From: Kiritimatiellia bacterium
GTDB lineage: Bacteria; Verrucomicrobiota; Kiritimatiellia; RFP12; UBA1067
Length of the DNA: 64,000 bases
NCBI GenBank assembly: GCA_016296065.1
Contig: JAEDKA010000002.1
Span: forward strand, 39,493-103,492
Direction: 5' to 3'
This document shows, one piece after another, positions 11,776-58,278 of this stretch. How positions within the stretch are numbered: the first letter of the stretch is position 1; the number at the start of each line of letters is the position of its first letter. A program made the position numbers and the translations under genes. The notes under the pieces were generated by a model. The model was not told the origin of the DNA and searched no databases. It worked only from the letters and a program-made list of their open reading frames with translations.

Positions 11776-11990
11776 TTTGACTGGGGGAAGCGGCGTCTCG
11801 CCGCTTCGTCGTGACGCGCCGGGTCGGTGCGTCTCCTTGGATTGCGATGCCAGGTGGCTGAACCAAGGAGATGCGGCGTCTCGCCGCGTCGTCGTGACGC
11901 GCCGGGTCGGTGCGTCTCCTTGGATTGCGATGCCAGGTGGCTGAACCAAGGAGATGCGGCGTCTCGCCGCGTCGGTGTGGCGGAGCTGGA
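11776..11990. repeat. ~83-bp tandem direct repeat (2.5 copies) containing GC hairpins
   Basis: unit ggagatgcggcgtctcgccgcgtcgtcgtgacgcgccgggtcggtgcgtctccttggattgcgatgccaggtggctgaaccaa repeated head-to-tail. Confidence 0.7.
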
Positions 11991-21406: not shown

Positions 21407-21484
<78 letters not shown>

Positions 21485-25792: not shown

Positions 25793-25821
25793 CTGGGGGA
25801 AGCGGCGTCTCGCCGCTTCTG
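25793..25821. repeat. REP-like hairpin GACTGGGGGAAGCGGCGTCTCGCCGCTTC (second copy at 11774)
   Basis: identical 29-mer at two loci; 9-bp perfect stem. Confidence 0.45.
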
Positions 25822-30452: not shown

Positions 30453-30473
30453 GCTAAGACCTTGTTTGAGCTA

Positions 30474-30674
30474 CTATTTTACGATGTCAACAATGTCTCC
30501 AATATTGCAATTCATTACCGTGCATATACGCTTAAGAACGGACATGCTTACATCGTCTCCGCGCGTCATTTTCGCAATGGTAAATGATGATATGCCGGTC
30601 GCATGTCGGAGATCGGTCTTGTTCATGTCCTTGTCAATTAGCAGCTTCCACAGCTTTTTATATGAAACACTCAT
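30474..30674 (-). CDS. HTH XRE-family controller (C) protein of the R-M system
   Basis: 66 aa; helix-turn-helix LRHATGISSFTIAKMTRGDDVSMSVLKRI; 21 bp upstream of the MTase on the same strand. Confidence 0.6.
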   Translation of the reverse strand: MSVSYKKLWKLLIDKDMNKTDLRHATGISSFTIAKMTRGDDVSMSVLKRICTVMNCNIGDIVDIVK

Positions 30675-30926
30675 TTGCTACTCTTGTCTTATGCATATAA
30701 GATGATTTGTGGTTATTATAACAAAAAAACGGCTGAATCACAATAGGGGTTGCAATCATTTCCAAATTTGATATTTGTACAAACTAATGCAATGTTTGGA
30801 GATGCTAACGTCTAGTTTGTATTGGGGGTCAGCGTTATTCTTCGCGAATCTCCGCGCATCCTTGAAGAACTTCTGTTTGATTCAATCACAAGTGCGACGA
30901 CATAAGATTTGGTATAATGCACAGCA

Positions 30927-31853: not shown

Positions 31854-31855
31854 AA

Positions 31856-32170
31856 ATGAGAGGCGTGATATTCCTGATGGCGTTTACGGTCGCGTTGTCT
31901 GCGTGCGCGGGAGACGAGACAAAGGTCGTCTTGTCTACGAACGACGTCGCTGCGGTGGTGCAGCGCGTCCAGTGCCATTCCGTCACGAAGTCCGGCAACA
32001 GGTGCAAGCGCAAGGCGGCGCCCGGCAAGCTCTATTGCCGCCAGCACGCAGCGCAGTCGTCTGCGGCGAAGCCGGCGGAGACTTGTGCCTACATTTCCGA
32101 CGACGGGAAGCGCTGTGCGGCGTCTGCCGCTTCTGGCAGCCGATTCTGCGCCAAGCACCAGGACAAGTGA
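31856..32170 (+). CDS. small lipoprotein with duplicated Cys/His zinc-ribbon-like motif
   Basis: lipobox LSAC; two repeats C-x(8,9)-C-x10-C-x2-H. Confidence 0.5.
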   Translation: MRGVIFLMAFTVALSACAGDETKVVLSTNDVAAVVQRVQCHSVTKSGNRCKRKAAPGKLYCRQHAAQSSAAKPAETCAYISDDGKRCAASAASGSRFCAKHQDK

Positions 32171-32309
32171 CCGCGGCAAAAGTGCCGTGGAAGCGATGAA
32201 AATTCTCCGCCCAGTTTTAGATTCGATTTGGTACAATATTTCTTGTCAGGAGGGGTGTGTGGCAGAAGATCGTCCACAAAAGTGAAACAATGTTGGTGGA
32301 GTAGCGGAA

Positions 32310-32450
32310 ATGGCGATGCCGCAGAGAGACGATACAATAGAGGCGATCAAGCGATTGGACGCGTTACTTGAGTATGCCGTCATGCATGGTGACGCGGCAG
32401 AGGCCGAGCGCATCCGCGCGGAGCTTCGCAAATTGACGGACGATATCTGA
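32310..32450 (+). CDS. small hypothetical protein (46 aa)
   Basis: ORF below the ORF-track size cutoff; RBS gagtagcggaa; promoter gatttggtacaatat at 32228. Confidence 0.25.
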   Translation: MAMPQRDDTIEAIKRLDALLEYAVMHGDAAEAERIRAELRKLTDDI

Positions 32451-32476
32451 TCTCCGCGGCGGAAGTGCCGCGCATT

Positions 32477-32532
32477 TTGTCGCTCGGCTGGCGACATGGG
32501 GCGGGGCGGGATTTGGTAGAATAGGCGGCGAA
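32477..32532 (+). promoter_or_regulatory. island promoter-operator cassette A (palindrome TTGTCGCTCGGCTGGCGACA + G-rich spacer + TTTGGTAGAATAGGCGGCGAAA)
   Basis: one of six near-identical cassettes; -10 TAGAAT at 32516; the right half-site overlaps a -35-like TGGCGACA. Confidence 0.6.
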
Positions 32533-32559
32533 ATATCAATGACAGGAAAGGAGAAGAGC

Positions 32560-33915
32560 ATGACGGCATACTTTGAAATTCGAACATCCGACGGCAATCA
32601 ATATGTCTGGCCGGAACCGCTCGGAGACAAGGGCGAGGCGCGGCTTGTAATAGAGAAGGTCGGCCACTCGGTGGAATGCGGGCTGCTGTTTGCGTACACA
32701 GACAACTATCCGTACATTGACCTTGAGTTTAACTCTGGCACTGTCCACTATGTCATAAATCATCGGCATTCGCGTCTCTATTGGGATGGATGCGTATGGG
32801 CGCGCAATTCTATAGAAGATGTCCGCTACTCACTGCCTGACCGCGTGCGGCTTTGTGTCAATGGCCGATATTTTCAGGATGTTGACTATGAGGAATTTGC
32901 GCGGGTTGTTCGGAATACGAAATCCGGTTTCGGAGAGCCGCAATACAGGTGTTCCGTGGTGATAACCGATCCGAGAGTGCGCTTTTTGGCGCTAGCTTCC
33001 CTTGCCTATTTTGACGTCAATGGTGGAAGGGCGAAATGTGAGCTTTACAAGCGAATGAACCCGACTTGCCAGGAGGCATTGGCGGCATTGCGGAGGTTTG
33101 GCCTTGACGTTGGACTCGGTCCCAACAAGGCGGATGAGCGGACCGTGTACGGACATCTTGAAGATTTCAGTGCCGCAAGCATGAAGGAGACCCCGGCTCA
33201 AATTCTTGGTCGAACAATACCTCTTAGAGTTGAATGTGAAGGTCTTTTGGAGCCTGGTAATCTTGGGTCTGGCACTTTGACTTTGAGTCTCTCGAATGAA
33301 CAGACGGGTGTAGTGCTGCGAGGAGTTGAGATGGTTGGGGGAATCCGCAGGAATTATGCATTTAGAGTCCCGACAGAGTGGGCTCGGAAAAGTGTCGTGA
33401 ACATAATAGAGAAGATTTCGGTTTCACCCACGATGCCGGCAGATCGTGAGGGATGCACAAGCCAAAATGTCTTAAGGATATTCAAAGGAGACAGCGCGTT
33501 TTCGCTATCATGGGGTGGGGTTGTCGGTGGTACTTGGCATCCGCTTGTGCGAATGGCCAGGAAGCTCAGGCTCGTCTACGACATGCTGAAAGAGGATGCT
33601 GCAGAGGGTGTTGAAGAGTCCGATATACGCCTCATAGGCGAGTTTAAGATTGCGCATGCTCACGTGAAAGACCAGAATGAGGCGTTTGCGGTGTTCCCTG
33701 CGGGGAAGCGGGTATTTCTGCGTTGCGGTGAGGACGGGGCGAATGTAGTGTTCGTGCAGGGCAGTGAAGATGGAGATGTTCTCGGTGAGGTTCCTACCGT
33801 GTTTGGCGATGTTCACAGCGCACTGCTAAACGGTTGTCACAGTGTCACTGCAAGAATCGAATCGCCATGCAGCCATCAGGGTAAACCTTCGGCTTGCGTT
33901 GTGGTTGTCGAGTGA
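32560..33915 (+). CDS. hypothetical protein (452 aa), cassette-driven
   Basis: RBS aggaaaggagaag; no recognisable domain by eye. Confidence 0.6.
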   Translation: MTAYFEIRTSDGNQYVWPEPLGDKGEARLVIEKVGHSVECGLLFAYTDNYPYIDLEFNSGTVHYVINHRHSRLYWDGCVWARNSIEDVRYSLPDRVRLCVNGRYFQDVDYEEFARVVRNTKSGFGEPQYRCSVVITDPRVRFLALASLAYFDVNGGRAKCELYKRMNPTCQEALAALRRFGLDVGLGPNKADERTVYGHLEDFSAASMKETPAQILGRTIPLRVECEGLLEPGNLGSGTLTLSLSNEQTGVVLRGVEMVGGIRRNYAFRVPTEWARKSVVNIIEKISVSPTMPADREGCTSQNVLRIFKGDSAFSLSWGGVVGGTWHPLVRMARKLRLVYDMLKEDAAEGVEESDIRLIGEFKIAHAHVKDQNEAFAVFPAGKRVFLRCGEDGANVVFVQGSEDGDVLGEVPTVFGDVHSALLNGCHSVTARIESPCSHQGKPSACVVVVE

Positions 33916-34147
33916 TGAAATTCAACAGACCAAGGTACTTTGGCGATAATGGCCGGGGTTTGGTAGAATAGGCGGTGTATGGCGGAGTCCATGCCAGGGA
34001 TGGTTCTCGCAGCGCTGTTCCACGATTGCTGCAAGAGGGGGATGCCTGGCGATAGGGGATAATTGGGGGCCTGGCACGGGGTGTGCTAATAGTCTGGTGT
34101 GTGCGCGGCGGTTCGCGTGCGAAGGAAAACGAAAAGGAGGTTCGGCT

Positions 34148-35479
34148 ATGAGGCAGGTTAATGTTAAGATCGGTGACATCACCGAGGAAACGGTTGATGC
34201 AATTGTGAATGCGGCGAACCGCAGCATGCTTGGCGGCGGCGGGGTGGATGGCGCTATACACAGAGCAGCGGGGCCGCAGCTCAAGTCCGAATGTGAAAAG
34301 TATCCACCAGATGCGCATGGGTATCGTCTAAAGACAGGAGAGGCGAAGATTACGATTGGATGCAATCTTTCTGCGAAGTTCGTGATACATACGGCGGGGC
34401 CGGACTGCAGTGAGGTTCGTGATGCTGCTGAGCAGGATCGGCTGCTGACGGCATCGTGGCGCAACTCCCTTGCCATTGTCGCCGAGCGTGGATTGAAGTC
34501 CGTCGCGTTCCCGTCAATTTCGACCGGAATCTATGGTTTCCCTAAGGAACGGGCGGCAAAGATCGCCGCTGCCGAAGTAGCCAAGTTCCTCGCCGACTAT
34601 CCCGATGTCGAAGTGCGGATATGCCTGCTGGGTCACGATGCCGAGTCGACGAAACGGCTTTACGAGGATGCGTTTGCCCATTCAATGCCCACGTCATTTC
34701 CTACCATTTCCGTTTCCAGACGAGCCCGGTTCCCGGATGAACTTTCATACGATGTCATTGCAGGTGAGTTTAGGCAGACAGCGAACGGTGCAACGTGTCC
34801 GCGTCATGGGTATATCGATGGCGTTCACTACATTGCGAAGTGCGAGACATTCCAGCAGTTGGTGAATCGCCCCAAGACCACTTCGGAAAAACATGTTCAC
34901 AACGAGTTCGTCGCGGACGGGGTGATTCGCGGCATGGGGTTTAATGTCCCGGAGAGTAGAGAGTATAGGACGCGAGAGAATAGAGTGCTCGTTCGCCTTG
35001 CCAAGTTCATCGCGCCAACGAGTCCTCTCTGCAATGCCTGGAATGCTGCAGATAGTGAAGCGAAAGAAGCGATACGTCGACAGGTGGTTGCGGCATATCC
35101 ACTTCTGCATCTGATTGCCGGATTTGATACGTTCCAGAACGACAATGTCATTGTAACAGAGGATGGGAAACTGTGGTTTGTTGACAACGGTGCATCGTTT
35201 GGGTGGAGCGCTATGGGAGCGTACGACAAGTACTACAAATACAGTGGGAGAACAGATCCAGACGATTCCCAATATGGCTTTCTTTCGTTGCGTAATCATC
35301 CAGGGCAAAAGTTGCTTCAGAGAGTTCTGTCGGGTGTAGCGGATGCGGAACTGTGGGCTGGGGCGGCTAAGCTTGACGTCGACAGGTTCGTCTCGCTGCT
35401 TCCTGCAGACGAATATGACGTATCATCCATTCGCACCTATGCAGAGACTCTCGTAAGAGAGGCAAAAAAGCATTGTTGA
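34148..35479 (+). CDS. MacroD-type macro domain fused to a C-terminal PI3K/PI4K-like (atypical kinase-like) domain
   Basis: N-terminus: VDAIVNAAN, GGGGVDGAIHRAAGP, VIHTAGP, AFPSISTGIYGFP (MacroD catalytic motifs). C-terminus: LIAGFDTFQNDNVIVTEDGKLWFVDNGASFG aligns with the PI3K catalytic and activation loops (GDRHxxN…DFG). Confidence 0.75.
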   Translation: MRQVNVKIGDITEETVDAIVNAANRSMLGGGGVDGAIHRAAGPQLKSECEKYPPDAHGYRLKTGEAKITIGCNLSAKFVIHTAGPDCSEVRDAAEQDRLLTASWRNSLAIVAERGLKSVAFPSISTGIYGFPKERAAKIAAAEVAKFLADYPDVEVRICLLGHDAESTKRLYEDAFAHSMPTSFPTISVSRRARFPDELSYDVIAGEFRQTANGATCPRHGYIDGVHYIAKCETFQQLVNRPKTTSEKHVHNEFVADGVIRGMGFNVPESREYRTRENRVLVRLAKFIAPTSPLCNAWNAADSEAKEAIRRQVVAAYPLLHLIAGFDTFQNDNVIVTEDGKLWFVDNGASFGWSAMGAYDKYYKYSGRTDPDDSQYGFLSLRNHPGQKLLQRVLSGVADAELWAGAAKLDVDRFVSLLPADEYDVSSIRTYAETLVREAKKHC

Positions 35480-35658
35480 TTGAATGATGTATGTTGTTCC
35501 ACTGGCGAGATGTGGAAGGGTCGACCACCGGCCGGCCAGGATTGTGGCGCGCTCAGTGATCGCGCAACGGCGTGGCACAATGAGGTGGAGCTTCCAGCTC
35601 CTCCCGTCCGGGCACGTGGCGCGGCGAGACGCCGCACCTCCTTGTCTGTCGCATGAAA

Positions 35659-35714
35659 TGTCGCTCCGCTTGCGACATGGGGTGCGGCGGGATTTGGTAG
35701 AATAGGCGGTGAAA
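35659..35714 (+). promoter_or_regulatory. island promoter-operator cassette C
   Basis: TGTCGCTCCGCTTGCGACA + tggggtgcggcgggat + TTGGTAGAATAGGCGGTGAAAG; 15 nt upstream of the CYTH gene ATG. Confidence 0.6.
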
Positions 35715-35728
35715 GAAAGGAGAGTCAG

Positions 35729-36205
35729 ATGGCGCTTGAGATAGAGAGGAAGTTCCTTGTGAAGGGCGACGGATGGCGCGGGCTGGCGCAGCCGGAGCTG
35801 ATGAAGCAGGGGTATGTGCCGACCGAGAACCACGTGACGGTGCGAGTGCGGACGGCCGGGGTGAAGGCGTGGATAACGTTGAAGACGCCCGCGAAGAATC
35901 TCGTCCGTCAGGAGTTCGAGTACGAGATTCCGATCGCGGACGCGGAGGCCATGCTGAAGTCGATGTGCGGAAATGTCGTGGAGAAGAAGCGATACAGGAT
36001 TCCGGCTGCGGAGCACAGGCTCGCCTGGGAAGTCGACGAGTTCCTCGGCGCAAACGCGCCGCTCGTCACGGCGGAGATTGAGCTGCCAAGCGCGGAGTTT
36101 GCCGTCCAGCTGCCGGAATGGGTTGGCCGCGAGGTCACAGAGGAAAACCGCTTTAAGAACAACCGCCTAGCGGAGCGGCCTTATTCGGCTTGGTCGAATG
36201 TCTGA
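35729..36205 (+). CDS. CYTH-domain protein (CyaB/ThTPase triphosphate-tunnel family)
   Basis: N-terminal EIERKFLV motif diagnostic of CYTH; 158 aa. Confidence 0.75.
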   Translation: MALEIERKFLVKGDGWRGLAQPELMKQGYVPTENHVTVRVRTAGVKAWITLKTPAKNLVRQEFEYEIPIADAEAMLKSMCGNVVEKKRYRIPAAEHRLAWEVDEFLGANAPLVTAEIELPSAEFAVQLPEWVGREVTEENRFKNNRLAERPYSAWSNV

Positions 36206-41551: not shown

Positions 41552-42481
41552 ATGAGAACCAACGAAGCGACAACTGACGACAAGTTCTGGACGGAACTTG
41601 CTCGCGCCGGGGAAGCGGGCGACATGAAGCGGTTCAACGAGCTGTTGGATTCTATCGGCAAGATACAGATCAGCACAGTCAACGATTTTGACTCTGGATT
41701 CTGGACGCCGCTCATGCATGCCGTCGAAGATGGCGATCTGAAGCGTTTTGATGAGCTAATTGCTGATGGTGCGGATGTCAACGTAGGTAATTTTGAAACA
41801 GAGACATACCCCATTACCCTTGCTGCCGAATATGGTCGTGATGAGATGTTCTTCCGCCTGGTTGAGCTTGGCGCCAGCATGGACGTGGACCAGTATTGCT
41901 GCCCATGCTGCGATATGTGGTATGGATTCAATCCTGCAGATCTGTTTGTTCTCGCAATGGAGGCGGGAAGTGTGAAAATTGCTCGCTATCTCAGCTTCAT
42001 GGGAGTGCGTCCGTGGTCGTCTACGCGGTCGCTTCGCAACTGCGGGGATACTGTCCGTGAAGTGGCGAAAGCCTCAGGGAATGGGGATTTTCTCAGGCGC
42101 GTCATTATGACGAAAGAGCTCGCACAGGGGTACATCACGAGATGGCGCGTCGAGGAAACGATAAGGTTCATCAAGCAGTCGTACCGTCTGGAGCACATGA
42201 GGCTGCTGGACTTCCAGCGGCTGAGGAACATGGCGGCGCTTGTCGTGGCTGTGGCGTACTTCGCGGCGGCCTGGCTCGGCAAGAAGGTGAAGCTCGACGC
42301 GCTCGCCAGGCACGTCGCAAAGGTCTCGCGCAAAATGTTCGAGGTGCCGGAGTTCTTCTACTACGCAATCGCGGACGGCCTCCGCTGGCTCTTCGTGCGC
42401 CACGGGAAGTGGCGCGGATGGAAGTGCCCGCGAGAGGAATGCGGCGACTTGCAGATGGAGTTCGAGCTGCTGACGGGATGA
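41552..42481 (+). CDS. chimeric ORF: N-terminal ankyrin-repeat protein fused in frame to a C-terminal IS4-family transposase fragment
   Basis: ANK repeats (GFWTPLMHAVEDGDLKRFDELIADGADVNV); from ~aa 195, YITRWRVEETIRFIKQ is the Y-x2-R-x3-E-x6-K signature of DDE_Tnp_1 (IS4). Confidence 0.55.
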   Translation: MRTNEATTDDKFWTELARAGEAGDMKRFNELLDSIGKIQISTVNDFDSGFWTPLMHAVEDGDLKRFDELIADGADVNVGNFETETYPITLAAEYGRDEMFFRLVELGASMDVDQYCCPCCDMWYGFNPADLFVLAMEAGSVKIARYLSFMGVRPWSSTRSLRNCGDTVREVAKASGNGDFLRRVIMTKELAQGYITRWRVEETIRFIKQSYRLEHMRLLDFQRLRNMAALVVAVAYFAAAWLGKKVKLDALARHVAKVSRKMFEVPEFFYYAIADGLRWLFVRHGKWRGWKCPREECGDLQMEFELLTG

Positions 42482-44855: not shown

Positions 44856-45476
44856 TTATATCATTTTCGCGGGTTCGTAGGGGCGGACGCGAAGTGTCGC
44901 GCCGAGCGACTCGGCGATGGCGCGGCAGCGTTGCTGCTTTTCGGCGCTTGTCACCGGCTCGCCCACGACCGTCATGACGACGCTAGGCACGCTTGACGCC
45001 GACTCCTTTGCGAATTCCAGCATTGCGGGATACGCAGCCTCGCCGAACTTCGGTCTGCACAGCGACTGGTATTCCTCAGGATCGTCAGTGTTGAGGCTTA
45101 TCGAGATGCAGTCCACCTTGCCTGCGAAGAGCGCTGCGGTAGGCCTTCCGTTGATGAGGTCGGAGAGTCCGTTCGTGTTAACGCGGACGCGCAGCGACGC
45201 GTCGAGAGACTTGAGGTGTCCCGCTGCGGCGAGCAGGACGTCCAGCCGCTCGGTGGGCTCGCCGTATCCGCAGAACACGACCTCGCGGAATCGTCCGAAG
45301 TCGCACGCGTCGAGGCTCGCGACGACTTCCTCGAGCGTTGGTTCGCGCTCAAGCCACAGCGAGTCGGAGCCGTATACGCCCGGCCCGTTGTGCCTGAGGC
45401 AGAACGTGCAGTCGCAGGGGCACCTATTCGTAAGGTTGACGTATATCGAGTTCTTTACCTGGTATGTGATGGTCAT
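44856..45476 (-). CDS. radical SAM protein (small, TIGR04038-like)
   Basis: CPCDCTFC (CxxxCxxC) cluster near the N-terminus; ~206 aa; minus-strand promoter gatatgatataatac. Confidence 0.6.
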   Translation of the reverse strand: MTITYQVKNSIYVNLTNRCPCDCTFCLRHNGPGVYGSDSLWLEREPTLEEVVASLDACDFGRFREVVFCGYGEPTERLDVLLAAAGHLKSLDASLRVRVNTNGLSDLINGRPTAALFAGKVDCISISLNTDDPEEYQSLCRPKFGEAAYPAMLEFAKESASSVPSVVMTVVGEPVTSAEKQQRCRAIAESLGATLRVRPYEPAKMI

Positions 45477-45621
45477 TTCGCATGTCCTTTTGCCGCCGTT
45501 CCGCGGCATGTCCGCCGCAACGCGGTCGGCGGGTATTATATCATATCCCCCACCGCGGTGGGGGTTGGGGGAGTCCGTGTCCTGTGGTAAAATTAACTCA
45601 GTGAAAATGGGAGCTGGAGCA

Positions 45622-48600
45622 ATGAACAGAGCAAATGCTATGATTTTGGCCGCCGCTGCCGCCATCGCTGGCGCGTTCACGTGCGCATGGGCGGAGGTGT
45701 CGCTGCCCGTCGTCACAAACATGGTGCTGCCGGAGGGGGTCGCGCAGGCGCGCTTCTCGAATGTGTTCGGAAGCGACATGGTCCTTCAGCGCGACTGCGA
45801 GATTCCGGTCTGGGGCTTCGCGCCGCAGGGCACGGCGGTTAGGGTCTCGCTCGACGGAGGCGCGCCGCTCTCCGCGACGGCAGATTCCACCGGACGCTGG
45901 ATCGTGACCTTCCCCGCGATCGCCACCCCGGGCGGAAGCCACACGCTCGCGCTTTCCGCCGACGGGCAGGCCGACGTCGTTCTCGCCAACATAGCGATCG
46001 GCGACGTATGGCTGTGCACGGGCCAGTCCAACATGGAGATGAGCATCTCCTGGGGCAATGTCGTCGGACAGGACGAGGCGCTTGCAGCCGCCGCGAATTC
46101 CCCAAACCTGCGCTTCTACATTGTGCCGCGCACGTCGGACAGGAGTGCGCCCCATGCGGACGTGAAGCCAGGGCTCTACGTCAACGACGGAGAGTCCAAT
46201 CCCACGGACCAGACGGTCGGCGTGTGGAAGGTGAGCAGCAGCGACTATGCAAAAGTGTTCTCCGCCGCCGGTCTCTTCTTTGCGCTGAAGCTCCAGTCCG
46301 AGAACATCGGCGTCCCGATCGGACTAGTCTCGTCGTGCAAGGGCGGAACCGACATCGAGGCATGGATGTCCGCGGAACGCTACAATTCTCTCTCCGGCAT
46401 AACGAAGCGCAATTTCAGCGGCGACAGGTTCAACCCGATGACGTTCCCGCTCTTCCCGATGGCCGTCAAGGGCGCGATATGGTACCAGGGCTGCAATAAC
46501 GTCTGGGCCGGCAACCAGAAAGACTACGATGTCCTCCTGCCGGCGATGGTTGACGAGTGGCGCCGTAATTTCACAAGCGCAGGCGGAAGTTTCCCGTTCT
46601 ACATCGTCGCGCTTTCCGCCGCCGAGCGCTCGACCACCTCGACCCCCATCGAGTCGGGTTGGGCGGAGATGCGCTGGATACAGCACCGGCTCGGCGAGAG
46701 CATTTCAAACAGCGGAACGATCGCCACCGTCGACGTCGGAGGCGATCTCCATCCGGCGGACAAGCGGACGGTCGGCGACCGTCTCGCGCGAATGGCGCTG
46801 GCCAGGACATACGGGCGCACGGGCTTCACGGACGGCGGACCGCGTCCGACAGGCGCCGTCGGCTTCGGTGACACCGTCGTCGTGTCTTTCGCCAACGCGG
46901 CGCATCTAGCGACGACGGACGGGGAGTATCCTAGCGGATTCCAGATCGCCGGCGCCGACAGGGTGTTCAGGTGGGCCGAGGCCGCCATCGTGGGCGACAA
47001 GGTGCATGTCTACGCTCCGGCCGGCATGACGGCCGCATACGTCCGCCATGCGTGGGACTCGTATCCTGTGCGCAATCTCGTCGGCGACGACGGAATCCCT
47101 TGCGACGCCTTCGAGCTCGCCGCGGCGAATCCGTCTGCGGGCGAAGTGCGTCCTCCATCTCTCCGCGACGTGCGCGTTGCCTGCGATGCAGCTACCCGCG
47201 CGTGGAGCGGATCGCTCAGGCTCCAGAGGCTTGGCGGCGACACTGCAGCGGGCACGCAGGTGTATGTCGCATACGGAACCTCCGACGGAGGCGGCGCGAG
47301 GTCCGGATGGCAGAACGTGTTCCAGATTCCCGGCACGACGTCGGTAGGGGAGTATGCCTTTCGGCTTTCCGGCATTTCCGCCGGCACGAAATATTTTCTG
47401 AAGGCATTTGTGGAGAACGGCGCAGTCGCGACGAGCGGCGAGACGCTGTCGTTTCTTGCGCCGACTGCCGCGGATGCGGATCCCGCCGCGGACATCGCGG
47501 AAAACTCCTGGTCGCTCTCTCCTGTGACCGGAGCGGCGTATGCAGGGATTGATTCGTCGAAGAAGTACGCGCTCGCGCTGAATTTCGGACCTGACTACGC
47601 CGTCAACGGCGATGACAGCTTTGTGGACACGACGGAATATGCGCCGTCGTACACAGCCGTCAACGGAGTTTCCTTCCTGAACATGCGAGGATCCGACACA
47701 ACCGTAAACACAGCGCCTTCCGGCGTGACATGGTCGGGATTCACCTGGTTCACGGGCAGGCCGGAAACATCGCCGACAATCGCCGCGAGCGATCCGCTAT
47801 CGAGGCTTCTCCGCGGCGAGTCGGACTGCGCCTACCTGTCGCCCAGGATTGTCATTGGCGGACTGAGAGCCGGCGCACTTTACGAAGTGTGCCTGTTCAA
47901 CGCGGCGCTCGCGAACGTGAAGGGCGAGGCGACCGTGTTCACCGTCGGCGAACAGTCCGATTCATCCGCGCCGTTCTCGTTCTCCTTTGCGCAGTACAAT
48001 CCATTCGGAGACGGGAGGCCGCGCGAGAATGTGCTGAAGTTCCGCAGGCGCGCGAATGCGAACGGAGCGCTGGTGTGGTCCACGGACAGGCATGACAACG
48101 CCCCCTATCTCTACTTCGCGCTGACCGTTCGGTCACTTGACGGCGAACCAGATCCCGACCCCGATCCCGACCCTGACCCCGATCCCGATCCCGACCCAGA
48201 CCCAGAACCCGATCCCGACCCTGACCCAGATCCAGATCCGGCACCGGTTTCCGGGGAAAACATCGTAACCTCTGGCGGGTTTCAGATCGAGAAGAAGCTG
48301 ATGGGAGCATTCGTTCCGCCGGACTGGCATTACGAAGGGGTGTCGTACACGGATCTCGCCTCCGCTCTAGCCGATTCCGGAGATCACTGGAGCATGTCCG
48401 GGTCGTATGCCGTTATCGCTGGCTACATTGGTGATGCCGAGAAGGGGGACTTCAACTACGACGGGTTCGGGACGACAGGAGGCGCTACTGACGGAGGATT
48501 CCCGGCGGGTCGCGGGCAGTGGGAGGGTTGTACACTCTTCACCTGCACGGCAACGCTCGTCGTTCCCGCGGCAGGCAAGTGGACGTTTGCGCTCGGTGCG

Positions 48601-49098
48601 GCGGTCGGGTCTGATTTCGCCATGTCGATGGAGGGGGGCGGCGCGACGTTTGCGATGTCCACGGCGGACTACGATTCCGGGACGAGGCGTGCCGTCAAGA
48701 CGTTCGACTTCCCGGCGGCCGGGAGCTATTCGTTTTCGCTGCAGCTGTACCGCAACGCGTCCGGTGTTGCGTTCATGGAGCTTTCCTGCGCGAAGGGCGA
48801 GGTCGCGGCGTCAGCGTTCTCGACGGACACTTTCCATCTCGTCGGGCTTGAGGGGACCGCGCCTGAAGTCGAAGCTCCCGTCGCGGGGAAGATAGACGTT
48901 TCCGGCGGCAAGGTGACTGTAAGCATCGGCAACGCAAAGGCCGGAGTCCGCTACGGCTACAGGTTCGCCGAGCGTCTGCAGGACATCGACTCTGCCGAAA
49001 TCGTCTGGCTTGACGGCGCGGACGTAGCGGACGGGGAGCTGTTGATCGAGCTGAACGTAGTGAGGCCTTCCGGATTCTTGCGTCTCGTAGCTGAATGA
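45622..49098 (+). CDS. sialate O-acetylesterase-family (SASA/DUF303) protein with DP-repeat linker and C-terminal beta-sandwich domains
   Basis: GDVWLCTGQSNME motif; signal peptide; (D/E)P repeat at 48139-48240. Confidence 0.75.
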   Translation: MNRANAMILAAAAAIAGAFTCAWAEVSLPVVTNMVLPEGVAQARFSNVFGSDMVLQRDCEIPVWGFAPQGTAVRVSLDGGAPLSATADSTGRWIVTFPAIATPGGSHTLALSADGQADVVLANIAIGDVWLCTGQSNMEMSISWGNVVGQDEALAAAANSPNLRFYIVPRTSDRSAPHADVKPGLYVNDGESNPTDQTVGVWKVSSSDYAKVFSAAGLFFALKLQSENIGVPIGLVSSCKGGTDIEAWMSAERYNSLSGITKRNFSGDRFNPMTFPLFPMAVKGAIWYQGCNNVWAGNQKDYDVLLPAMVDEWRRNFTSAGGSFPFYIVALSAAERSTTSTPIESGWAEMRWIQHRLGESISNSGTIATVDVGGDLHPADKRTVGDRLARMALARTYGRTGFTDGGPRPTGAVGFGDTVVVSFANAAHLATTDGEYPSGFQIAGADRVFRWAEAAIVGDKVHVYAPAGMTAAYVRHAWDSYPVRNLVGDDGIPCDAFELAAANPSAGEVRPPSLRDVRVACDAATRAWSGSLRLQRLGGDTAAGTQVYVAYGTSDGGGARSGWQNVFQIPGTTSVGEYAFRLSGISAGTKYFLKAFVENGAVATSGETLSFLAPTAADADPAADIAENSWSLSPVTGAAYAGIDSSKKYALALNFGPDYAVNGDDSFVDTTEYAPSYTAVNGVSFLNMRGSDTTVNTAPSGVTWSGFTWFTGRPETSPTIAASDPLSRLLRGESDCAYLSPRIVIGGLRAGALYEVCLFNAALANVKGEATVFTVGEQSDSSAPFSFSFAQYNPFGDGRPRENVLKFRRRANANGALVWSTDRHDNAPYLYFALTVRSLDGEPDPDPDPDPDPDPDPDPDPEPDPDPDPDPDPAPVSGENIVTSGGFQIEKKLMGAFVPPDWHYEGVSYTDLASALADSGDHWSMSGSYAVIAGYIGDAEKGDFNYDGFGTTGGATDGGFPAGRGQWEGCTLFTCTATLVVPAAGKWTFALGAAVGSDFAMSMEGGGATFAMSTADYDSGTRRAVKTFDFPAAGSYSFSLQLYRNASGVAFMELSCAKGEVAASAFSTDTFHLVGLEGTAPEVEAPVAGKIDVSGGKVTVSIGNAKAGVRYGYRFAERLQDIDSAEIVWLDGADVADGELLIELNVVRPSGFLRLVAE

Positions 49099-49157
49099 CC
49101 GCTATGCCGTATTTTTGGTATAATAGCGGGAAACGGCAAGGAGACGATGGAATATAG

Positions 49158-52100
49158 ATGGCTGACGAACTGACCCCAATGCAGCGGCAGTATCTCGCGC
49201 TGAAGCGCGAGATACCCCCGGGCGCGATACTGATGTTCCGCCTCGGCGACTTTTACGAGATGTTCGGGGAGGACGCGGTCGTCGCGTCCCCTATACTCGG
49301 CGCGACGTTGACGCACCGCGGCAGCCAGCCGATGTGCGGCGTCCCGTACCACGCCCTCAACAGCTACCTCGCGAAGCTCATCCGCGCCGGCAAGACTGCC
49401 GCGCTCTGCGACCAGGTGGAGGATCCTAAGACGGCGAAGGGGCTCGTCCGCCGCGAGATCACCCGCATCGTCACGCCCGGCACCGTCACAGAGGACGGAC
49501 TCCTCGACGAGACCGTCAACAACTACGTCGCCGCTGTGCACGGGCTTGGGCTTGCGCTTCTCGACCTCGCGACCGGCGAGTTCACCGTCGAGTCGTTCGC
49601 AACGCAGGCGAAGTTCGACGAGGCGATGGAGCGGTACCGTCCGGCGGAGACGCTTGCCGAGACGGAGGAGAACCGCTGGACCTTCGCGCTCGACGCGGCG
49701 ACGGACGTCCTCACGCGCCACTTCAAGGTGCTTTCGCTGGACGGATTCGGACTCGAGGGGAAGGGCGACCTCATATCGGCGGCGGGTGCGCTTCTGTACT
49801 ACGTCGGCACGACGCTGCGCCATTCCATAGCGCACGTCAGGAAGCTTGCGATACGACAGTCGGACGACGCGCTCGTCCTTGACGCGGGGACTCTGCGCCA
49901 CCTGCAGCTCGTGCCGGGAGGGGACGTTCCCAAGGCGGCGTCGCTCCTCGGAGTCCTCGACGTCACCAGGACCCCCATGGGCGCGCGCACGCTCAGGAAC
50001 TGGACGGTGCGTCCGCTCGCTCGCTCCGCCGACGTCAACGCGCGGCTGGACCGCGTGCAGGCGTTCGTAGACGACCGCGGCACACTTGCCGCGCTCAGGA
50101 GGCTCCTTACGGGTGTGCGCGACCTCGAGAGGCTCGTGCAGAAGGTCGACTCGATGCGGGCGAATCCGCGCGACCTCAGGGCGCTTGCGGATTCGCTGCG
50201 TCCGATACCGGAGATTGTCGACATTCTTCGTGCCGTGACGCGGCGGGACGCCGCATCTCCTTGTGTTGGTGGGGCGCTTGGTGTTGTGACGCGGCAGGAT
50301 GCCGCATCTCCTTGTGTTGGTGGGGCGCTTGGCGCTGTGACGCGGCGGGACGCCGCATCTCCTTGCGGTGGTGAGGCGCTTGCGCCGCAGCCGGACGTCG
50401 TTTCGCTGATTGACCGCGCGATAGTCGAGGAGCCGCCGGCGCTTCTCGCGGACGGAGGCTTCATCGCGCCGGGATACGACCAGGAGCTGGACGAGCTCCG
50501 CGAGATATCGCACGAGGGGCACAAGTGGCTCGCGGAGTTCCAGGCGCGCGAGCAGGCGCGTACGGGCATCACGAAGCTGAAGGTCAAGCACGTGTCGACG
50601 TTCGGATTCGTCATCGAGATTCCCAAGGGATCCGTCTCGCAGGCGCCGGAGGACTACATCCGCCGCCAGACGCTGACGACGGGCGAGCGCTACACGACGC
50701 CAGAGCTGAAGGAGTACGAGTCCAAGGTGCTCGGCGCGCAGGAGAAGTCGATCGCGATAGAGCAGCGGCTCTTCAGGGAGATGCTTGCGACGATCGCGGC
50801 GAAGACGGTGGAGATTCAGGACACCGCGCTCGCGATAGGCGACCTCGATGCCACGCTGGCGCTGGCGGACCGCGCGCTCGCTGCGGGGTACGTGAGGCCG
50901 GTCGTCGACGATTCGGACGTTCTCGAGATCAGGGACGGGAGGCATCCGATAATCGAGCAGCTTCCCGACGCGGAACCGTTCGTCCCGAACTCGGCGTTCC
51001 TGAACACGACGACGGACCAGATAATGCTCATCACCGGGCCGAACATGGCCGGAAAGTCGACGTACATCCGCCAGGTCGCGACGATTGCGGTGATGGCGCA
51101 GATGGGCTCGTTCGTGCCCGCGTCGTCGATGCGGCTCGGAGTGCTGGACCGGGTGTTCACGCGCATCGGCGCGGGAGACGACCTCGCGCGCGGGCGGTCC
51201 ACGTTCCTCGTCGAGATGCAGGAGACCGCGAACATCCTCAACAACGCGACGCCGAAGTCGCTCATCGTCCTCGACGAGATCGGACGCGGCACGTCCACTT
51301 TCGACGGAATCTCAATCGCTTGGTCCGTGGCGGAGTACCTTCACGGCAACGCGCGCTCGAAGGCGAAGACGCTTTTCGCGACGCACTACCACGAGCTCAC
51401 CGACCTGGCGGACACCTTCAAGGGCGTGAAGAACTACACGGTGAAGGTGAAGGAGGAGGGTTCGCGCGTCGTCTTCCTGAGGCGCATTGCTCCCGGAGTC
51501 GCGGAGAAGAGCTTCGGCATCCACGTCGGCGCGATGGCGGGGCTTCCGCAGGAGGTCGTAGCGCGCGCGTCGCAGATACTGAAGAACCTCGAGGCGAACG
51601 AGATCGACGTCAACGCGAAGGAAAAAGCGGTGAGGCGTCCGAGAAAGCGGCTTTCCGACCTTCCGGGGCAGATGACGTTCTTCTCTATCGCCGTTGCGCT
51701 GTCGCTCGTGTTCCAGTGCGGCGCGGCGACGACGATACACAGGAGCTTCCGGAACAGGGACACGGGGTATGTCAACGGCGCGACGCCCGGCTTTTCGGCT
51801 CCGTCGGCCCGCAAGTCGACCGGCGCATCGTCCGTTCCGAAGGCCGTAAGGGGCAAGTCGCCGAACAAGCTGATGGGAAAGCTTGGCGAAGTGGTGGACG
51901 GCGGTCTCATCAGCGTAGTCGACGGATCGGGGAATACCCATGCCGTCTCGCTGAGGCACATCGACGCGCCGGCGGCGGACCAGCCGTTCGGTCCGGAGGC
52001 CGCGAAGTTCCTCGGCGACCTGCTGCGCGGGAAGGAGATCGAGGTGCTATGGACGAAAAAAGACGCCGCAGGCGCGATTTCCGGCGATGTATACTACAGG

Positions 52101-52286
52101 CACGAGAAGTTCGGGATGGTCGACGCCAACATGACGATGGTGAAGAACGGCGCGGCGTGGCAGGCCTACAGGGACACGGAAAAGACATACGCGGCGGCGG
52201 AAAAGGAGGCGCGCGCGGCGAAGCGCGGGCTTTGGTCCGCGCCGAAGCCAGTGAGGCCGTCCGAATGGCGAAAGAGGAAGAAATGA
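49158..52286 (+). CDS. mutS: DNA mismatch repair protein MutS with internal tandem repeats and a C-terminal staphylococcal-nuclease-like (SNase) domain
   Basis: GPNMAGKSTYIRQ Walker A; DEIGRGTSTFDG; C-terminal ~190 aa with SNase motifs (VVDGSGNTHAVSLRHIDAPAADQPFG…AKRGLW) and no intervening stop. Confidence 0.85.
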   Translation: MADELTPMQRQYLALKREIPPGAILMFRLGDFYEMFGEDAVVASPILGATLTHRGSQPMCGVPYHALNSYLAKLIRAGKTAALCDQVEDPKTAKGLVRREITRIVTPGTVTEDGLLDETVNNYVAAVHGLGLALLDLATGEFTVESFATQAKFDEAMERYRPAETLAETEENRWTFALDAATDVLTRHFKVLSLDGFGLEGKGDLISAAGALLYYVGTTLRHSIAHVRKLAIRQSDDALVLDAGTLRHLQLVPGGDVPKAASLLGVLDVTRTPMGARTLRNWTVRPLARSADVNARLDRVQAFVDDRGTLAALRRLLTGVRDLERLVQKVDSMRANPRDLRALADSLRPIPEIVDILRAVTRRDAASPCVGGALGVVTRQDAASPCVGGALGAVTRRDAASPCGGEALAPQPDVVSLIDRAIVEEPPALLADGGFIAPGYDQELDELREISHEGHKWLAEFQAREQARTGITKLKVKHVSTFGFVIEIPKGSVSQAPEDYIRRQTLTTGERYTTPELKEYESKVLGAQEKSIAIEQRLFREMLATIAAKTVEIQDTALAIGDLDATLALADRALAAGYVRPVVDDSDVLEIRDGRHPIIEQLPDAEPFVPNSAFLNTTTDQIMLITGPNMAGKSTYIRQVATIAVMAQMGSFVPASSMRLGVLDRVFTRIGAGDDLARGRSTFLVEMQETANILNNATPKSLIVLDEIGRGTSTFDGISIAWSVAEYLHGNARSKAKTLFATHYHELTDLADTFKGVKNYTVKVKEEGSRVVFLRRIAPGVAEKSFGIHVGAMAGLPQEVVARASQILKNLEANEIDVNAKEKAVRRPRKRLSDLPGQMTFFSIAVALSLVFQCGAATTIHRSFRNRDTGYVNGATPGFSAPSARKSTGASSVPKAVRGKSPNKLMGKLGEVVDGGLISVVDGSGNTHAVSLRHIDAPAADQPFGPEAAKFLGDLLRGKEIEVLWTKKDAAGAISGDVYYRHEKFGMVDANMTMVKNGAAWQAYRDTEKTYAAAEKEARAAKRGLWSAPKPVRPSEWRKRKK
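50236..50388 (+). repeat. 3 x 51-bp in-frame tandem repeat inside mutS (17-aa repeat VTRRDAASPCVGGALGV)
   Basis: three consecutive near-identical 51-mers. Confidence 0.75.
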
Positions 52287-52372
52287 GGAAAAATGCAAAT
52301 CCCCCCTTGAAACCCAAGGGCATTTTTCGCTATAATATGTATTCATTTGTGAGAAAAAAGGACAAATAGAAA

Positions 52373-54475
52373 ATGGCAAAGCGTGACATTCCGCTCGATC
52401 ATGTGAGAAACTTCGGCATTATGGCCCACATCGACGGTGGCAAGACCACCACGTCGGAGCGTATTCTCTACTATTCGGGCAAGAACTACAAGATCGGCGA
52501 GGTGCATGACGGCGCCGCGACGATGGACTTCATGGTGCAGGAGCAGGAGCGCGGCATCACGATTCAGTCCGCCGCGACGTGCGTTCAGTGGGGCGACTAC
52601 CGCCTGTCGCTGATCGACACTCCCGGACACGTCGACTTCACGGCTGAGGTGGAGCGCTCGCTCCGCGTTCTCGACGGCGCCGTGGCTCTCTACTGCGCGG
52701 TCGGCGGCGTGCAGCCCCAGTCCGAGCAGGTGTGGCGCCAGTCCGAGAAGTACAAGGTGCCGAAGATCGCGTTCGTCAACAAGATGGACCGCGTCGGCGC
52801 GAACTTCTACAGCGTCATGGAGCAGATGAAGAACCAGCTCGGCGCGAACCCGGTTCCGGTCGTCATCCCGATCGGCGCGGCGGAGTCGTTCGAGGGTGTC
52901 ATCGACCTCATCAAGATGAAGGCGCTCTACTTCGACATGAAGAGCCTCGGCAAGACGGTCCTCGAGAAGGACATCCCCGAGGAGTACGTCGAGAAGGCCA
53001 AGGAGTGGCGCCAGAAGATGCTCGAGAGCGCGGCCGAGCAGGACGATGCGCTTATGGAGAAGTTCTTCGCGGGCGAGGAGCTCACGAACGAGGAGATCGA
53101 GATGGGCCTCCGCAAGGGTTGCCTCTCCCGCGCCATCACTCCCGCGTTCTGCGGCACGGCGTTCAAGGACAAGGGCATCCAGCCGCTCCTCGACGGCGTG
53201 TGCAAGTATCTTCCCTCCCCGCTCGACGCGGGCGCTGCGGTTTCGCAGGACAACCCCGACGAGAAGCGCGAGGTCAGCGACGATGCGCCTTTCTGCGGTC
53301 TTGCGTTCAAGATCATGAACGACCCGAAGTCCGGCGGCAAGATCACGTTCGTGCGCGTCTACTCGGGCACGATGAAGCTTGGCGCCGAGATGCTCGACTC
53401 CACGATCAACAAGGAGCAGCGCATCTCCCGTCTCTTCCGCATGCACGCCGCCAAGCAGGAGCCTCTCGACGAGGCGCATGCCGGCGACATCGTCGCGTGC
53501 GTCGGCCTCACCGAGACCAGGACGGGCGACACGCTCTGCGACCCCGAGCATCCGATCACGCTCGAGTCCATCGACTTCCCCGCGCCCGTCATCTCGGTCG
53601 CCGTCAAGCCGAAGAGCCGCGGCGACAACGAGAAGCTCGGCGTTGCGCTGCACGCGCTCGCGATGGAGGACCCGACGTTCGTCGTCAGCTTCGACCAGGA
53701 GACTTCCGAGACGATCATCGCCGGCATGGGCGAGCTCTACCTTGAGGTCATCGTCGACCGTCTGAAGCGCGAGTTCAACGTCGAGTGCGACGTGGGCGCC
53801 CCGCAGGTCGCGTACCGCGAGACGATCACGGTTCCGGTCGACAACGAGTACAAGCACGTCAAGCAGTCCGGCGGCCGCGGCCAGTACGCGCACGTCTGCC
53901 TCAAGCTCGCTCCGCAGGAGCCGGGCAAGGGCTTCGAGTTCGTCAACGAGGTCAAGGGCGGCGTGATTCCGACGGAGTACATCCCGGCGGTCGAGAAGGG
54001 CGTCCGCAAGGCGCTCGAGTCGGGTCCGCTCGCGGGCTTCCCGGTCGTGGACGTCAAGGCGACGGTCTACTTCGGTTCCTATCACGAAGTCGACTCGAAC
54101 GAATTCGCGTTCATCACCTGCGCGATGCAGTGCTTCAAGCAGGCGTTCATGAAGGCGAAGCCGCAGCTCCTCGAGCCGATGATGGACGTCGAGGTCGTGG
54201 TGCCCGAGCAGTACATGGGCGCGGCGAACGGCTCGATCAACCAGCGTCGTGGCCGCATCGAGGGCATGGAGGACCGCGCGGGCGTGAAGCTCCTCAAGGC
54301 GACGGTCCCGCTCGGCGAGATGTTCGGCTACTCGAACGCGATCCGCACCGTGACCCAGGGCCGCGGCTCCTTCACGATGATCTTCAAGCAGTACGAGCCC
54401 GTCCCGAAGAACATCGCGGCGGAGGTCGTCGAGAAGCGCATCAAGGAAGGCAAGGTCCGCCCGATGGCCGACTGA
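52373..54475 (+). CDS. fusA: translation elongation factor G
   Basis: [31 protein letters not shown]; full-length EF-G. Confidence 0.9.
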
Positions 54476-58204: not shown

Positions 58205-58278
58205 TGTCCCATGGTGTAGCGGCTGCACACGGGTTTTTGATACCTAGAGTTCTGGTTCGACTCCAGATGGGACAACCA
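58205..58278 (+). tRNA. tRNA-Gln (TTG), anticodon stem weakened, discriminator A
   Basis: arm sequence matches E. coli tRNA-Gln (GGTTTTTGATACC); T-arm TCTGG-TTCGACT-CCAGA; acceptor TGTCCCA/TGGGACA; CCA encoded. Confidence 0.65.

Follow-up and report, generated by a model that had tools for sequence, protein, structure and literature searches.

What does an open reading frame (ORF) encode that begins as a mismatch-repair gene and continues, without an intervening stop codon, into a nuclease-like domain? The question is raised by a 64,000-nucleotide stretch of DNA from a Kiritimatiellia bacterium (contig JAEDKA010000002.1, positions 39,493 to 103,492), hereafter called the window; coordinates refer to the window unless another locus is named. 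The ORF listing of the window contains a single frame at 49158..52286 (+) with an ATG start and 1042 codons for amino acids. It comprises a MutS1 protein with an in-frame repeat array, a hydrophobic segment, a linker and a domain with the fold of staphylococcal nuclease (SNase). A preliminary description of the locus had left three options, namely a MutS–nuclease fusion, a nested gene for a secreted nuclease or an assembly error. The fusion is genuine, in-frame and evolutionarily stable, and it was formed from two once separate genes. On balance, it probably joins MutS1 to a catalytically dead secreted SNase-fold gene whose module keeps its old extracytoplasmic job and provides no repair nuclease.

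The MutS1 part and its C-terminus

Pfam locates the MutS domains I–V at residues 6–812 of the 1042-residue product (PF01624, PF05188, PF05192, PF05190 and PF00488, each above its gathering score). Two NCBIfam equivalogs are assigned, NF003810 with 952 bits (cut-off 480) and TIGR01070 with 862 bits (cut-off 641.7), and the MutS2 model stays below threshold with 165 bits vs a cut-off of 400. The mismatch motif (Phe-x-Glu) GDFYEMF is found at residues 30–36, Walker A (GPNMAGKST) at residues 627–635 and Walker B (LIVLDEIGRGTS) at residues 702–713. Domains, equivalogs and motif positions agree with the canonical MutS1 that had been proposed. Judged by these features, the MutS1 part proper (residues 1–842, 49158..51683, +) can be regarded as an ordinary, bona fide MutS1.

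This part ends with QMTFF (residues 838–842, 51669..51683, +), a pentapeptide of the β-clamp-binding type that contains an in-frame ATG at 51672 (codon 839). QMTFF is invariant in 120 relatives and C-terminal in most of them. Outside the immediate clade, every MutS among the 120 best protein matches terminates exactly at ...PGQMTFF. The host is a member of the gut or rumen Kiritimatiellae, and metagenome-assembled genomes with the label Kiritimatiellae, Verrucomicrobia or Lentisphaerae account for almost all of the 80 best loci at species level. Query matches end at residue 842 or before in nearly all of these loci; 11 of the 80 match slightly beyond it, at most to residue 902. Altogether, MutS terminates at or close to this point in ~80 related species and ~90 related proteins. 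From this distribution, QMTFF is regarded as the ancestral MutS C-terminus in the group. Other MutS proteins carry the β-clamp-binding consensus QL[S/D]LF near the C-terminus (PMC5027486), and clamp-binding motifs of MutS are also described in PMC8744996. QMTFF fits the consensus and presumably binds the clamp.

Reality and age of the junction

In the window, ...LSDLPGQMTFF reads without a stop into SIAVALSLVFQCGAA, and the resulting polypeptide contains …LPGQMTFFSIAVALSLVFQ… across the junction. The DNA at this site is ...CCG GGG CAG ATG ACG TTC TTC TCT ATC GCC..., which bears out the earlier statement that the ORF runs past ...DLPGQMTFF and includes an internal ATG at 51672.

The same architecture recurs in independent metagenomes. 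The junction without a stop is found in 23 protein clusters of the fused type. Twenty-one protein clusters (P0001–P0021; ~95 member sequences, 90–96% identity) span the whole query and carry the SNase family domain PF00565. Their members derive from ENA, NCBI and JGI assemblies that were made with different assemblers. The uninterrupted fused ORF is present at 10 DNA loci, the window and nine others (L088–L096), several of them from pig-gut metagenomes. A metagenome scan using the SNase-like (SN) part gave four loci, and further DNA loci were retrieved protein by protein.

Synonymous divergence (dS, Nei–Gojobori) among the fused loci is 0.16–0.36 in MutS and 0.12–0.48 in the SN domain. The ratio of non-synonymous to synonymous divergence (ω, Nei–Gojobori) is 0.02–0.06 for MutS, 0.03–0.15 for the SN domain and 0.14–0.37 for the linker. 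Between the window and L093, for example, the SN domain shows 30 differences for 90 synonymous sites vs 6 for 300 non-synonymous sites. Across the junction the amino acids are conserved among the fused loci despite many synonymous differences. Thus, the fused ORF is old and both of its halves are under purifying selection. The ω values of the MutS part are consistent with a working mutS gene.

An SNase fold with a replaced active site

The appended domain comprises residues 903–1042 and the stop codon (51864..52286, +). Pfam assigns PF00565 to residues 930–1027 (E 2.9e-15, 57.1 bits vs a cut-off of 21). In an AlphaFold2 model of residues 826–1042, calculated with 16 homologues, the predicted local distance difference test (pLDDT) exceeds 93 for residues 903–1042, which adopt an OB-type fold. 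The best Foldseek matches in the PDB are S. aureus nuclease variants (template modelling score 0.81, r.m.s. deviation 2.4 Å) and the SN domains of human SND1; SNase in the PDB is also matched by phmmer. The full-length AlphaFold model is poor (mean pLDDT 50.8) and gives no view of how the SN domain docks on MutS.

The canonical catalytic and Ca2+-binding set of SNase consists of Asp21, Arg35, Asp40, Glu43 and Arg87. The residues found at these positions are Gly, Ser, Asp, Ala and Ala (D21G, R35S, E43A and R87A), and Asp40 alone is kept, both when phmmer aligns the domain to S. aureus nuclease and in an alignment of 17 sequences. In SNase, polarising the phosphate and holding the water that attacks it are the task of Arg35, Arg87 and Glu43 (PMC8436206). 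The alignment of these positions is informative because the distant homologues P0126–P0135 retain DGDT, Arg, IDAPE and YGR. The loss of catalytic residues is common to the nearest standalone proteins P0123, P0124 and P0125 and is therefore older than the fusion. The complete SNase-like nuclease domain of the preliminary description stands as a fold, supported by Pfam, AlphaFold2 and Foldseek, but not as an enzyme; it is devoid of the canonical active site.

None of the best 150 among 9,904 SNase-like representatives, searched with the C-terminal 217 residues, contains MutS domains, and lower-ranked representatives could still include MutS–SNase fusions. The two long proteins among these 150 are ankyrin-repeat proteins.

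Signal-peptide remnants at the junction

MutS and the SN fold are connected by a hydrophobic segment and a linker. The segment SIAVALSLVFQCGAA (51684..51728, +) aligns to the signal peptides of P0123 and P0124 and corresponds to an h-region followed by a small-x-small (G-A-A) site, now internal to the ORF. It holds the most hydrophobic 15-mer of all 1042 residues (mean Kyte–Doolittle value (KD) 1.97) and is predicted as a helix with low confidence (AlphaFold2). Six sequence variants of the h-region occur among the fused strains; all are hydrophobic and all have G-A-A before TT. A reading of LVFQC as a lipobox, and thus of the product as a lipoprotein, was rejected: Cys854 is replaced by Ala in several fused strains. 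The linker (residues 858–902, 51729..51863, +) opens with the motif TTIHRSFRNRDTGY (51729–51770), which is kept in fused, standalone and more distant homologues. The remainder is of low complexity and disordered (linker pLDDT <50, AlphaFold2).

Standalone orthologues of the appended part have ~210 residues. P0123 comprises 207 residues with 68% identity and P0124 comprises 211 residues with 70% identity, the latter encoded on a 145-kb contig. The N-termini of P0123, P0124 and the corresponding gene product of locus L100 are MSIRKTTVLLSVLAAVGAAAA, MNIRKTVVAAFALAAACAALAA and MNIRRTIVAVAVIAAVGAAAAG. They begin with MSIRK, MNIRK or MNIRR and continue with a hydrophobic core and A-x-A; the basic n-region, the h-region and the small-x-small site are all clear in a manual reading. 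After the signal peptide, the standalone proteins carry (V/T)T(V/I/L)HRSF(R/N)NRDTG(Y/F). T(I/V)HRSFR directly follows the signal peptide even in the catalytically intact relatives P0126–P0128.

In the 17-sequence alignment, FFSIAVALSLVFQCGAA of the fusion sits exactly at the position of the standalone h-region and cleavage site, directly before TTIHRSFRNRDTGY. Compared to the standalone signal peptide, the n-region alone has been swapped, for the tail of MutS. A basic n-region exists in the fusion only with a start at GTG 51630 (see below) or with the MutS tail acting in cis. By this alignment, the appended part descends from a small secreted protein with a Sec-type signal peptide.

One fusion and repeated loss of the module

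In a neighbour-joining tree built from 782 ungapped columns of the MutS core, all MutS proteins with any tail past QMTFF form one clade; the sister clade and all others end at FF. Within the tailed clade one branch retains the fusion. The other branches bear short tails, SMLSE/SMLNE/SMLSN, SFLSEPGAVEEKGDGK, SLLAAFATAFT, SLAAAFAAALT and SLPAAFAAAFALGC, and in every case inspected the short mutS tail is followed by a gene for a nucleoside triphosphate (NTP)-transferase-like protein (NTase).

At the DNA level, the short tails are scars of deletions. The scar of L001, TTC TTC TCG ATG CTG TCG GAA TGA, corresponds to the start of the h-region of the fusion, TCC AT[CGCCGTTGC]G CTG TCG, joined to the 3' end of the SN module, (CCG TCG) GAA TGG, with TGG changed to TGA. 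In L004, CTT TCG GAG remains together with a tail resembling the standalone gene's 3' end, and the ATGA overlap to the NTase gene is still present. In L097 and L099, a stop follows after the greater part of the h-region. In the alignment PSxW is part of the conserved SNase-like C-terminus, and insertion of the module into a pre-existing tail is much less parsimonious for this reason. The pattern argues for a single fusion event; one branch retained the module under selection, and others lost it by in-frame deletion at least twice independently. Because sister lineages deleted the module with mutS intact, MutS does not need it.

Relatives with a stop codon and a separate thermonuclease gene had been named as the observation that would refute the fused reading. 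The outcome is mixed: the stop right after QMTFF is found, but no SNase-like gene lies within 6 kb of mutS at any of the 80 species loci (0/80), and a separate thermonuclease gene adjoining mutS, the presumed pre-fusion state, was never found among them. The standalone SN gene follows recJ in L005–L007 and thiF in L100, and unrelated genes precede the other copies. Downstream, it is always followed by an NTase-like gene for ~305 residues (Pfam/NCBIfam), usually with an ATGA overlap, which is its sole constant neighbour. The SN-like and NTase-like genes make up a conserved and translationally coupled pair that occurs in three upstream contexts, recJ, thiF and mutS (L005 6340–9547; L100 1516–3886; L093 3001–7034). 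In the fused sublineage L090, L091 and L093–L096 the NTase gene overlaps the end of the fused ORF and is followed by argG. In the window and L092, fusA occupies the position downstream of the fused ORF. A deletion of recJ from between mutS and the SN gene as the cause of the fusion was considered and dropped: the 2-kb gap between mutS and the NTase gene in L072 contains, instead of recJ, a hydrolase gene and an exonuclease-like gene on the opposite strand.

The events may be reconstructed as follows. The upstream partner would have been an ordinary MutS1 ending at QMTFF, and the downstream partner a gene for a ~210-residue secreted SNase (OB)-fold protein that had already lost its catalytic and Ca2+-binding residues. 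A small deletion would have taken out the stop codon of mutS together with the start and the basic n-region of the downstream gene. MutS would then read through the h-region, the A-x-A-type cleavage site, the linker and the SN fold, and sister lineages would later have removed the SN module in frame.

Expression and a candidate internal start

A σ70-like promoter match (ATGACC-18-TATAAT with a TG extension, consensus match only) is located 34 nt upstream of the mutS start (49095..49124, +). It is the sole promoter-like site before or inside the ORF in a consensus scan, which may not suit this phylum. The same scan gives a terminator-like hairpin with a T-run 18 nt past the stop codon (52304..52330, +) and, after this hairpin, a promoter-like site for fusA (52307..52336, +; fusA at 52373–54475). 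With one promoter-like site upstream, none inside and a terminator-like hairpin after the stop, a single mRNA is likely.

Within this mRNA, a candidate internal start is present at 51618..51632 (+). The Shine–Dalgarno (SD)-like sequence AAGGAA (51618–51623) is separated by a 6-nt spacer from an in-frame GTG (51630–51632, codon 825). All fused loci (10/10) have AAGGA[GA]-N6-GTG. Initiation at GTG 51630 would yield MRRPRKRLSDLPGQMTFF-h-region-GAA/TT, with the basic MutS tail RRPRKR as n-region. The Lys-Glu-Lys codons that create the SD-like motif are typical of the clade of fused and scarred genes, and outgroups differ there. L097/L098, which have lost the SN module, show a degraded motif, AAGGACAAGGTGGTT. 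Codon 825 being GTG was rejected as evidence on its own; many non-fused relatives share this GTG. The proposal of a nested secreted gene that starts at ATG 51672 is plausible in kind, but these observations are suggestive of GTG 51630 as the better candidate.

Weighing of the explanations

The module likely keeps an extracytoplasmic role because it is under purifying selection and because the hydrophobicity of the segment and a cleavage-type site are maintained. Most likely, it is not a mismatch-repair nuclease and retains a non-catalytic extracytoplasmic role; the fusion as a whole is probably a tolerated gene-fusion accident rather than a new repair nuclease. The analysis shows the fusion and how old it is, the selection on it, the replaced catalytic residues, the descent from a signal peptide, the scars of deletion and the origin of the repeats; that the module is exported, that translation starts internally and that the module plays no part in repair is what we infer from these patterns. 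Export could be achieved in two ways. By route (a), translation would also be initiated internally, at GTG 51630 with RRPRKR as n-region or at ATG 51672. By route (b), the hydrophobic segment would serve within the full-length chain as a signal-anchor through which the C-terminal 185 residues are exported, with RRPRKR remaining cytoplasmic. Route (a), with both products made, is slightly favoured. A more far-reaching version of this explanation is put forward only tentatively: one ORF would give two unrelated products in two compartments, with the last 18 MutS codons doubling as n-region and start of the h-region, or, alternatively, a membrane-inserted MutS would export its C-terminus. If either form is true, a core repair gene and a gene for a secreted protein share codons in frame and are co-regulated.

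Several observations weigh against the extracytoplasmic role and the internal start. As there is no stop codon, ribosomes that finish MutS must make the 1042-residue chain, and some true fusion protein therefore exists. The SD-like AAGGAG...GTG is kept in the non-fused close relatives L001 and L004, and six comparable in-frame combinations of SD-like motif and start occur per 14,544 codons of the window, ~1 per 2,400 by chance. A start at ATG 51672 would leave the signal peptide without a basic n-region. The fused segment is somewhat weaker than the standalone signal peptides (KD 1.97 vs 2.3–2.65), and the signal-peptide calls are manual readings of n-, h- and c-regions. Purifying selection on the SN fold would fit a new non-catalytic role in the cytoplasm, e.g. 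extra DNA binding on MutS, equally well, and the position of the standalone gene right after recJ in one relative could hint at a link to DNA metabolism.

In a rival explanation, only the full-length chain is made. Residues ~840–857 would then anchor MutS at the inner membrane, and the C-terminal 185 residues would be translocated and possibly clipped by signal peptidase, without any internal start. The missing stop codon and the lack of an internal promoter-like site agree with this, as do RRPRKR on the N-terminal side of the segment (positive-inside), G-A-A on its C-terminal side and the tolerance of the scar lineages for a hydrophobic MutS tail of 11–14 residues. However, with 15–17 residues and a moderate hydrophobicity (KD 1.97) the segment would make a short membrane anchor, and it would not emerge before 840 residues of a cytoplasmic protein that is folded and dimeric. 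Tethering to the membrane would also be expected to impede replisome-coupled repair, and a good SD-like motif with GTG lies 14 codons upstream. An anchored MutS as the only product is thus considered unlikely. Less likely still is a cytoplasmic protein acting in mismatch repair, either a functional MutS–nuclease with a possibly non-canonical site or MutS with an OB-fold DNA-binding module. The frame has been kept up to a dS of ~0.45 with ω of 0.03–0.15 in the SN domain, MutS–nuclease fusions recur elsewhere (PMC12292046; PMC3200294) and the standalone orthologue directly follows recJ in L005–L007. On the other hand, D21, R35, E43 and R87 are all replaced, already so in the secreted standalone orthologues, and the h-region and the A-x-A site are retained instead of eroded. 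Furthermore, the module was lost at least twice in sister lineages with intact mutS, and other standalone copies follow thiF or unrelated genes with the NTase-like gene as the only constant neighbour. The assembly error that had been suspected, whether from assembly, binning or sequencing, has practically no probability left. The exact window protein has no record elsewhere (exact look-up), and a few related contigs are obviously defective, with frameshifts in the SN part of the clusters P0022 and P0023 and a deletion of the Walker A region in P0021; these flaws are either assembly defects or defective alleles. But the junction recurs in ENA, NCBI and JGI assemblies from different assemblers, in at least 21 clusters and at 10 loci, the amino acids over it are conserved despite many synonymous differences, and the deletion scars make sense only with a fused ancestor. 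A fusion of MutS1 with a catalytically dead, formerly secreted module remains the preferred explanation.

A hairpin element in the MutS1 part

The fused ORF contains a second feature that had been described before, three 17-residue repeats near residue 360. Tandem Repeats Finder returns 2.9 in-frame copies of 51 bp (17 residues) at 50235..50382 (+), residues 360–409. The copies match at 90% without indels; at the 3' end, the third one is divergent. The array lies in a hypervariable loop of MutS domain III. Its consensus is VTR[RQ]DAASPC(V)GG(A/E)ALG(V/A), and each unit contains a hairpin, GCGGCG-NNN-CGCCGC. In the full-length model, which is poor, residues 364–406 are unstructured (pLDDT <50) between confident helices of domain III. 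The site is a length-variable loop in all relatives, with EIGVGTPQPD in P0078 as its shortest form, and sister lineages without the fusion are also without the repeat. The suggested comparison across strains revealed copy-number variation: most strains have one copy (1008/1009 residues), others two (1025 residues), three (the window, P0002 and L089) or five (P0001).

The repeats are present as an insertion in mutS, as proposed, but their core is not private to this gene. The core of ~27 nt, GACGCGGCG(A/G)GACGCCGCATCTCCTTG, also occurs, shared over 19–26 nt, at three places that are intergenic in the gene map of the window, and 6–8 copies are found in the window vs 0–0.01 expected by chance. 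At 11784..11975 (−), three 83-bp units form an array in which each unit carries the hairpin core of the mutS repeat, GACGCGGCGAGACGCCGCATCTCCTTG. A copy of the variant GAAGCGGCGAGACGCCGCTTC is located between convergent genes at 25796..25819 (−), and another copy at 35618..35641 (+) lies upstream of a gene for a CYTH-domain protein at 35729. The intergenic hairpin copies fold significantly better than shuffled sequences (z = −3.5 to −3.7; z = −3.7 for the array at 11784–11975). In intergenic DNA, the core of the element, GCGGCGAGACGCCGC, is often flanked by GGAGCTTCCAGCTCC and CAAGGAG...CTCCTTG palindromes.

The stem of the hairpin was compared between the repeat units of mutS in L088–L096 and those of the window (50237–50362). 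Two states only were found, GCGGCG...CGCCGC in units 1 and 3 of the window, as in the intergenic copies, and GCGGCA...TGCCGC in all other units and strains. The paired change corresponds to an Arg-to-Gln exchange and a synonymous change in an Asp codon. Mixed states were not seen among the compared units and strains. The paired states suggest that the hairpin is under constraint or that intergenic copies have acted as donors in gene conversion. Taken together, the mutS repeat is an in-frame copy of a dispersed hairpin resembling repetitive extragenic palindromic (REP) elements that was later amplified in tandem. The element landed in the hypervariable surface loop of domain III, and the array illustrates that a REP-like hairpin can settle and amplify in frame within mutS.

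The NTase-like gene that follows the SN module has an in-frame repeat of its own (...GSDRVGVGSNRVEIGSDRVEIGSD...; L093 6027–7034, L094 4058–5107 and L095 4027–5055). Its products comprise 335, 342 and 349 residues in different samples vs 305 residues in relatives. In-frame minisatellites in surface loops seem to be common in this lineage.

Other features of the window

Directly upstream of mutS, a 4.2-kb gene at 44917–49098 (+) encodes a large secreted protein with a sialate O-acetylesterase (SASA) domain. It is located between an aldo-keto reductase gene and mutS and carries a (Pro-Asp)n repeat at 48145–48239. In L092 (1397–2534) the SASA-domain gene is absent and the reductase gene lies directly upstream of mutS, which reflects variation of gene content at strain level. 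The ORF at 41552–42481 (+) combines ankyrin repeats (residues 27–112) with a fragmentary DDE transposase domain (residues 188–236) and is possibly a transposase remnant fused to an ankyrin protein.

The region 28000–36000 has a guanine–cytosine (GC) content of 0.43–0.55 vs 0.62 elsewhere. This low-GC island includes genes for a MamI-type restriction endonuclease (28197–29291, +), an N6/N4 DNA methylase (29274–30452, −), an EamA transporter (30927–31853) and a Macro-domain protein (34097–35479). It is probably a horizontally acquired restriction-modification island. Several predicted genes (e.g. 12280, 15836, 16857, 30927, 42643 and 54580) show a TATAAT-like hexamer 6–10 nt before the start and no Shine–Dalgarno sequence, a pattern that suggests leaderless or near-leaderless mRNAs beside SD-led genes. 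Three tRNA genes are present at 18547–18623, 21407–21483 and 58205–58278 (Val-GAC, Pro-TGG and Gln-TTG, respectively); no further Rfam matches reach the gathering threshold in the window.

Comparison with known systems

The MutS1 part shares with canonical MutS1 of the E. coli, P. aeruginosa or B. subtilis type the five domains, Phe-x-Glu, Walker A and B and a Qxx[LF]F pentapeptide near the C-terminus (PMC5027486; PMC8744996). It differs in that QMTFF, the last five residues in relatives, is followed by 200 residues of foreign origin and that the loop in domain III contains the 17-residue repeat array.

Nuclease-fold domains attached to one end of a MutS core are known from several subfamilies and are the common trait with the protein described here. 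MutS2 carries a Smr domain (PMC3200294), plant-type MSH1 a GIY-YIG domain and MutS1 of Viridiplantae DPD1; octocoral mitochondrial MutS (MutS7, octocoral/viral) carries an HNH domain (bioRxiv 10.1101/2021.09.08.459357). A parallel case is Cyanophora MutS1, in which a C-terminal Mrr_cat-like domain is present without key catalytic residues (PMC12292046): a C-terminal nuclease-like domain with its catalytic residues missing is found in both. The Smr, GIY-YIG, HNH and Mrr domains, however, have other folds, are ancient and define whole subfamilies. The fusion reported here has an SNase fold, is confined to one species-level clade, has a signal-peptide core between its parts and is of secreted ancestry. 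Assignment to the class of MutS–nuclease fusions proper, i.e. a competent nuclease joined to MutS in the same compartment, fails at the absent catalytic residues. The analogy to MutS2-Smr that had been drawn for this locus is thus appropriate for an in-frame and long-lived fusion, but not for one with catalytic residues lost, remnants of a secretion signal and deletion of the module in sister lineages.

The module shares the OB-type fold of the SNase/thermonuclease family PF00565, and its standalone orthologues have signal peptides like secreted thermonucleases. It is distinguished from this family by G/S/A/A in place of D21/R35/E43/R87, an extra RHEKF loop, an N-terminal TIHRSFR motif and the constant pairing of the standalone form with an NTase-like gene. 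With the SN domains of SND1 (Tudor-SN) it has in common a structural match without the catalytic set. Several SN domains of SND1 are inactive.

For the repeat array, a parallel is provided by Rickettsia palindromic elements (RPEs) in coding genes (PMC10969869). As in these and in intragenic ERIC, BOX and MITE (miniature inverted-repeat transposable element) sequences, a dispersed intergenic hairpin is found in frame in a housekeeping gene, at a variable surface site and with the protein intact. RPEs measure ~100–150 bp, whereas the core shared here has ~27 nt and is amplified in tandem (1–5 copies). In the comparison, which covered the shared core, terminal inverted repeats or target-site duplications, the hallmark of MITEs, were not identified.

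In-frame nested genes, by which one ORF gives both a longer and a shorter product, are known from infB, cheA and clpB. The fused ORF resembles them in a plausible SD sequence and a candidate in-frame start within a longer frame. Both products of infB, cheA and clpB have the same function and reside in one compartment; the shorter one proposed here would be an unrelated secreted protein. If the module is still exported, the locus is a test case for nested genes in the same frame or for an internal signal sequence on a large cytoplasmic protein.

The finding leaves the knowledge of mismatch repair itself unchanged. Its value lies in a datable natural example of how the loss of a stop codon welds a housekeeping gene to an unrelated neighbour, with three states visible: an ancestral MutS that has QMTFF at its end, the fusion and several scars left by independent deletions. 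It is also a warning for annotation. 'MutS + SNase domain' suggests a repair nuclease, yet the domain is without the canonical active site and still contains parts of a secretion signal. A report of a MutS–SNase fusion was not found in a text search of the literature, and the architecture is new as a combination. In kind, it is a case of what is already known, lineage-specific accretion of a domain on MutS by loss of a stop codon, with an unusually legible history.

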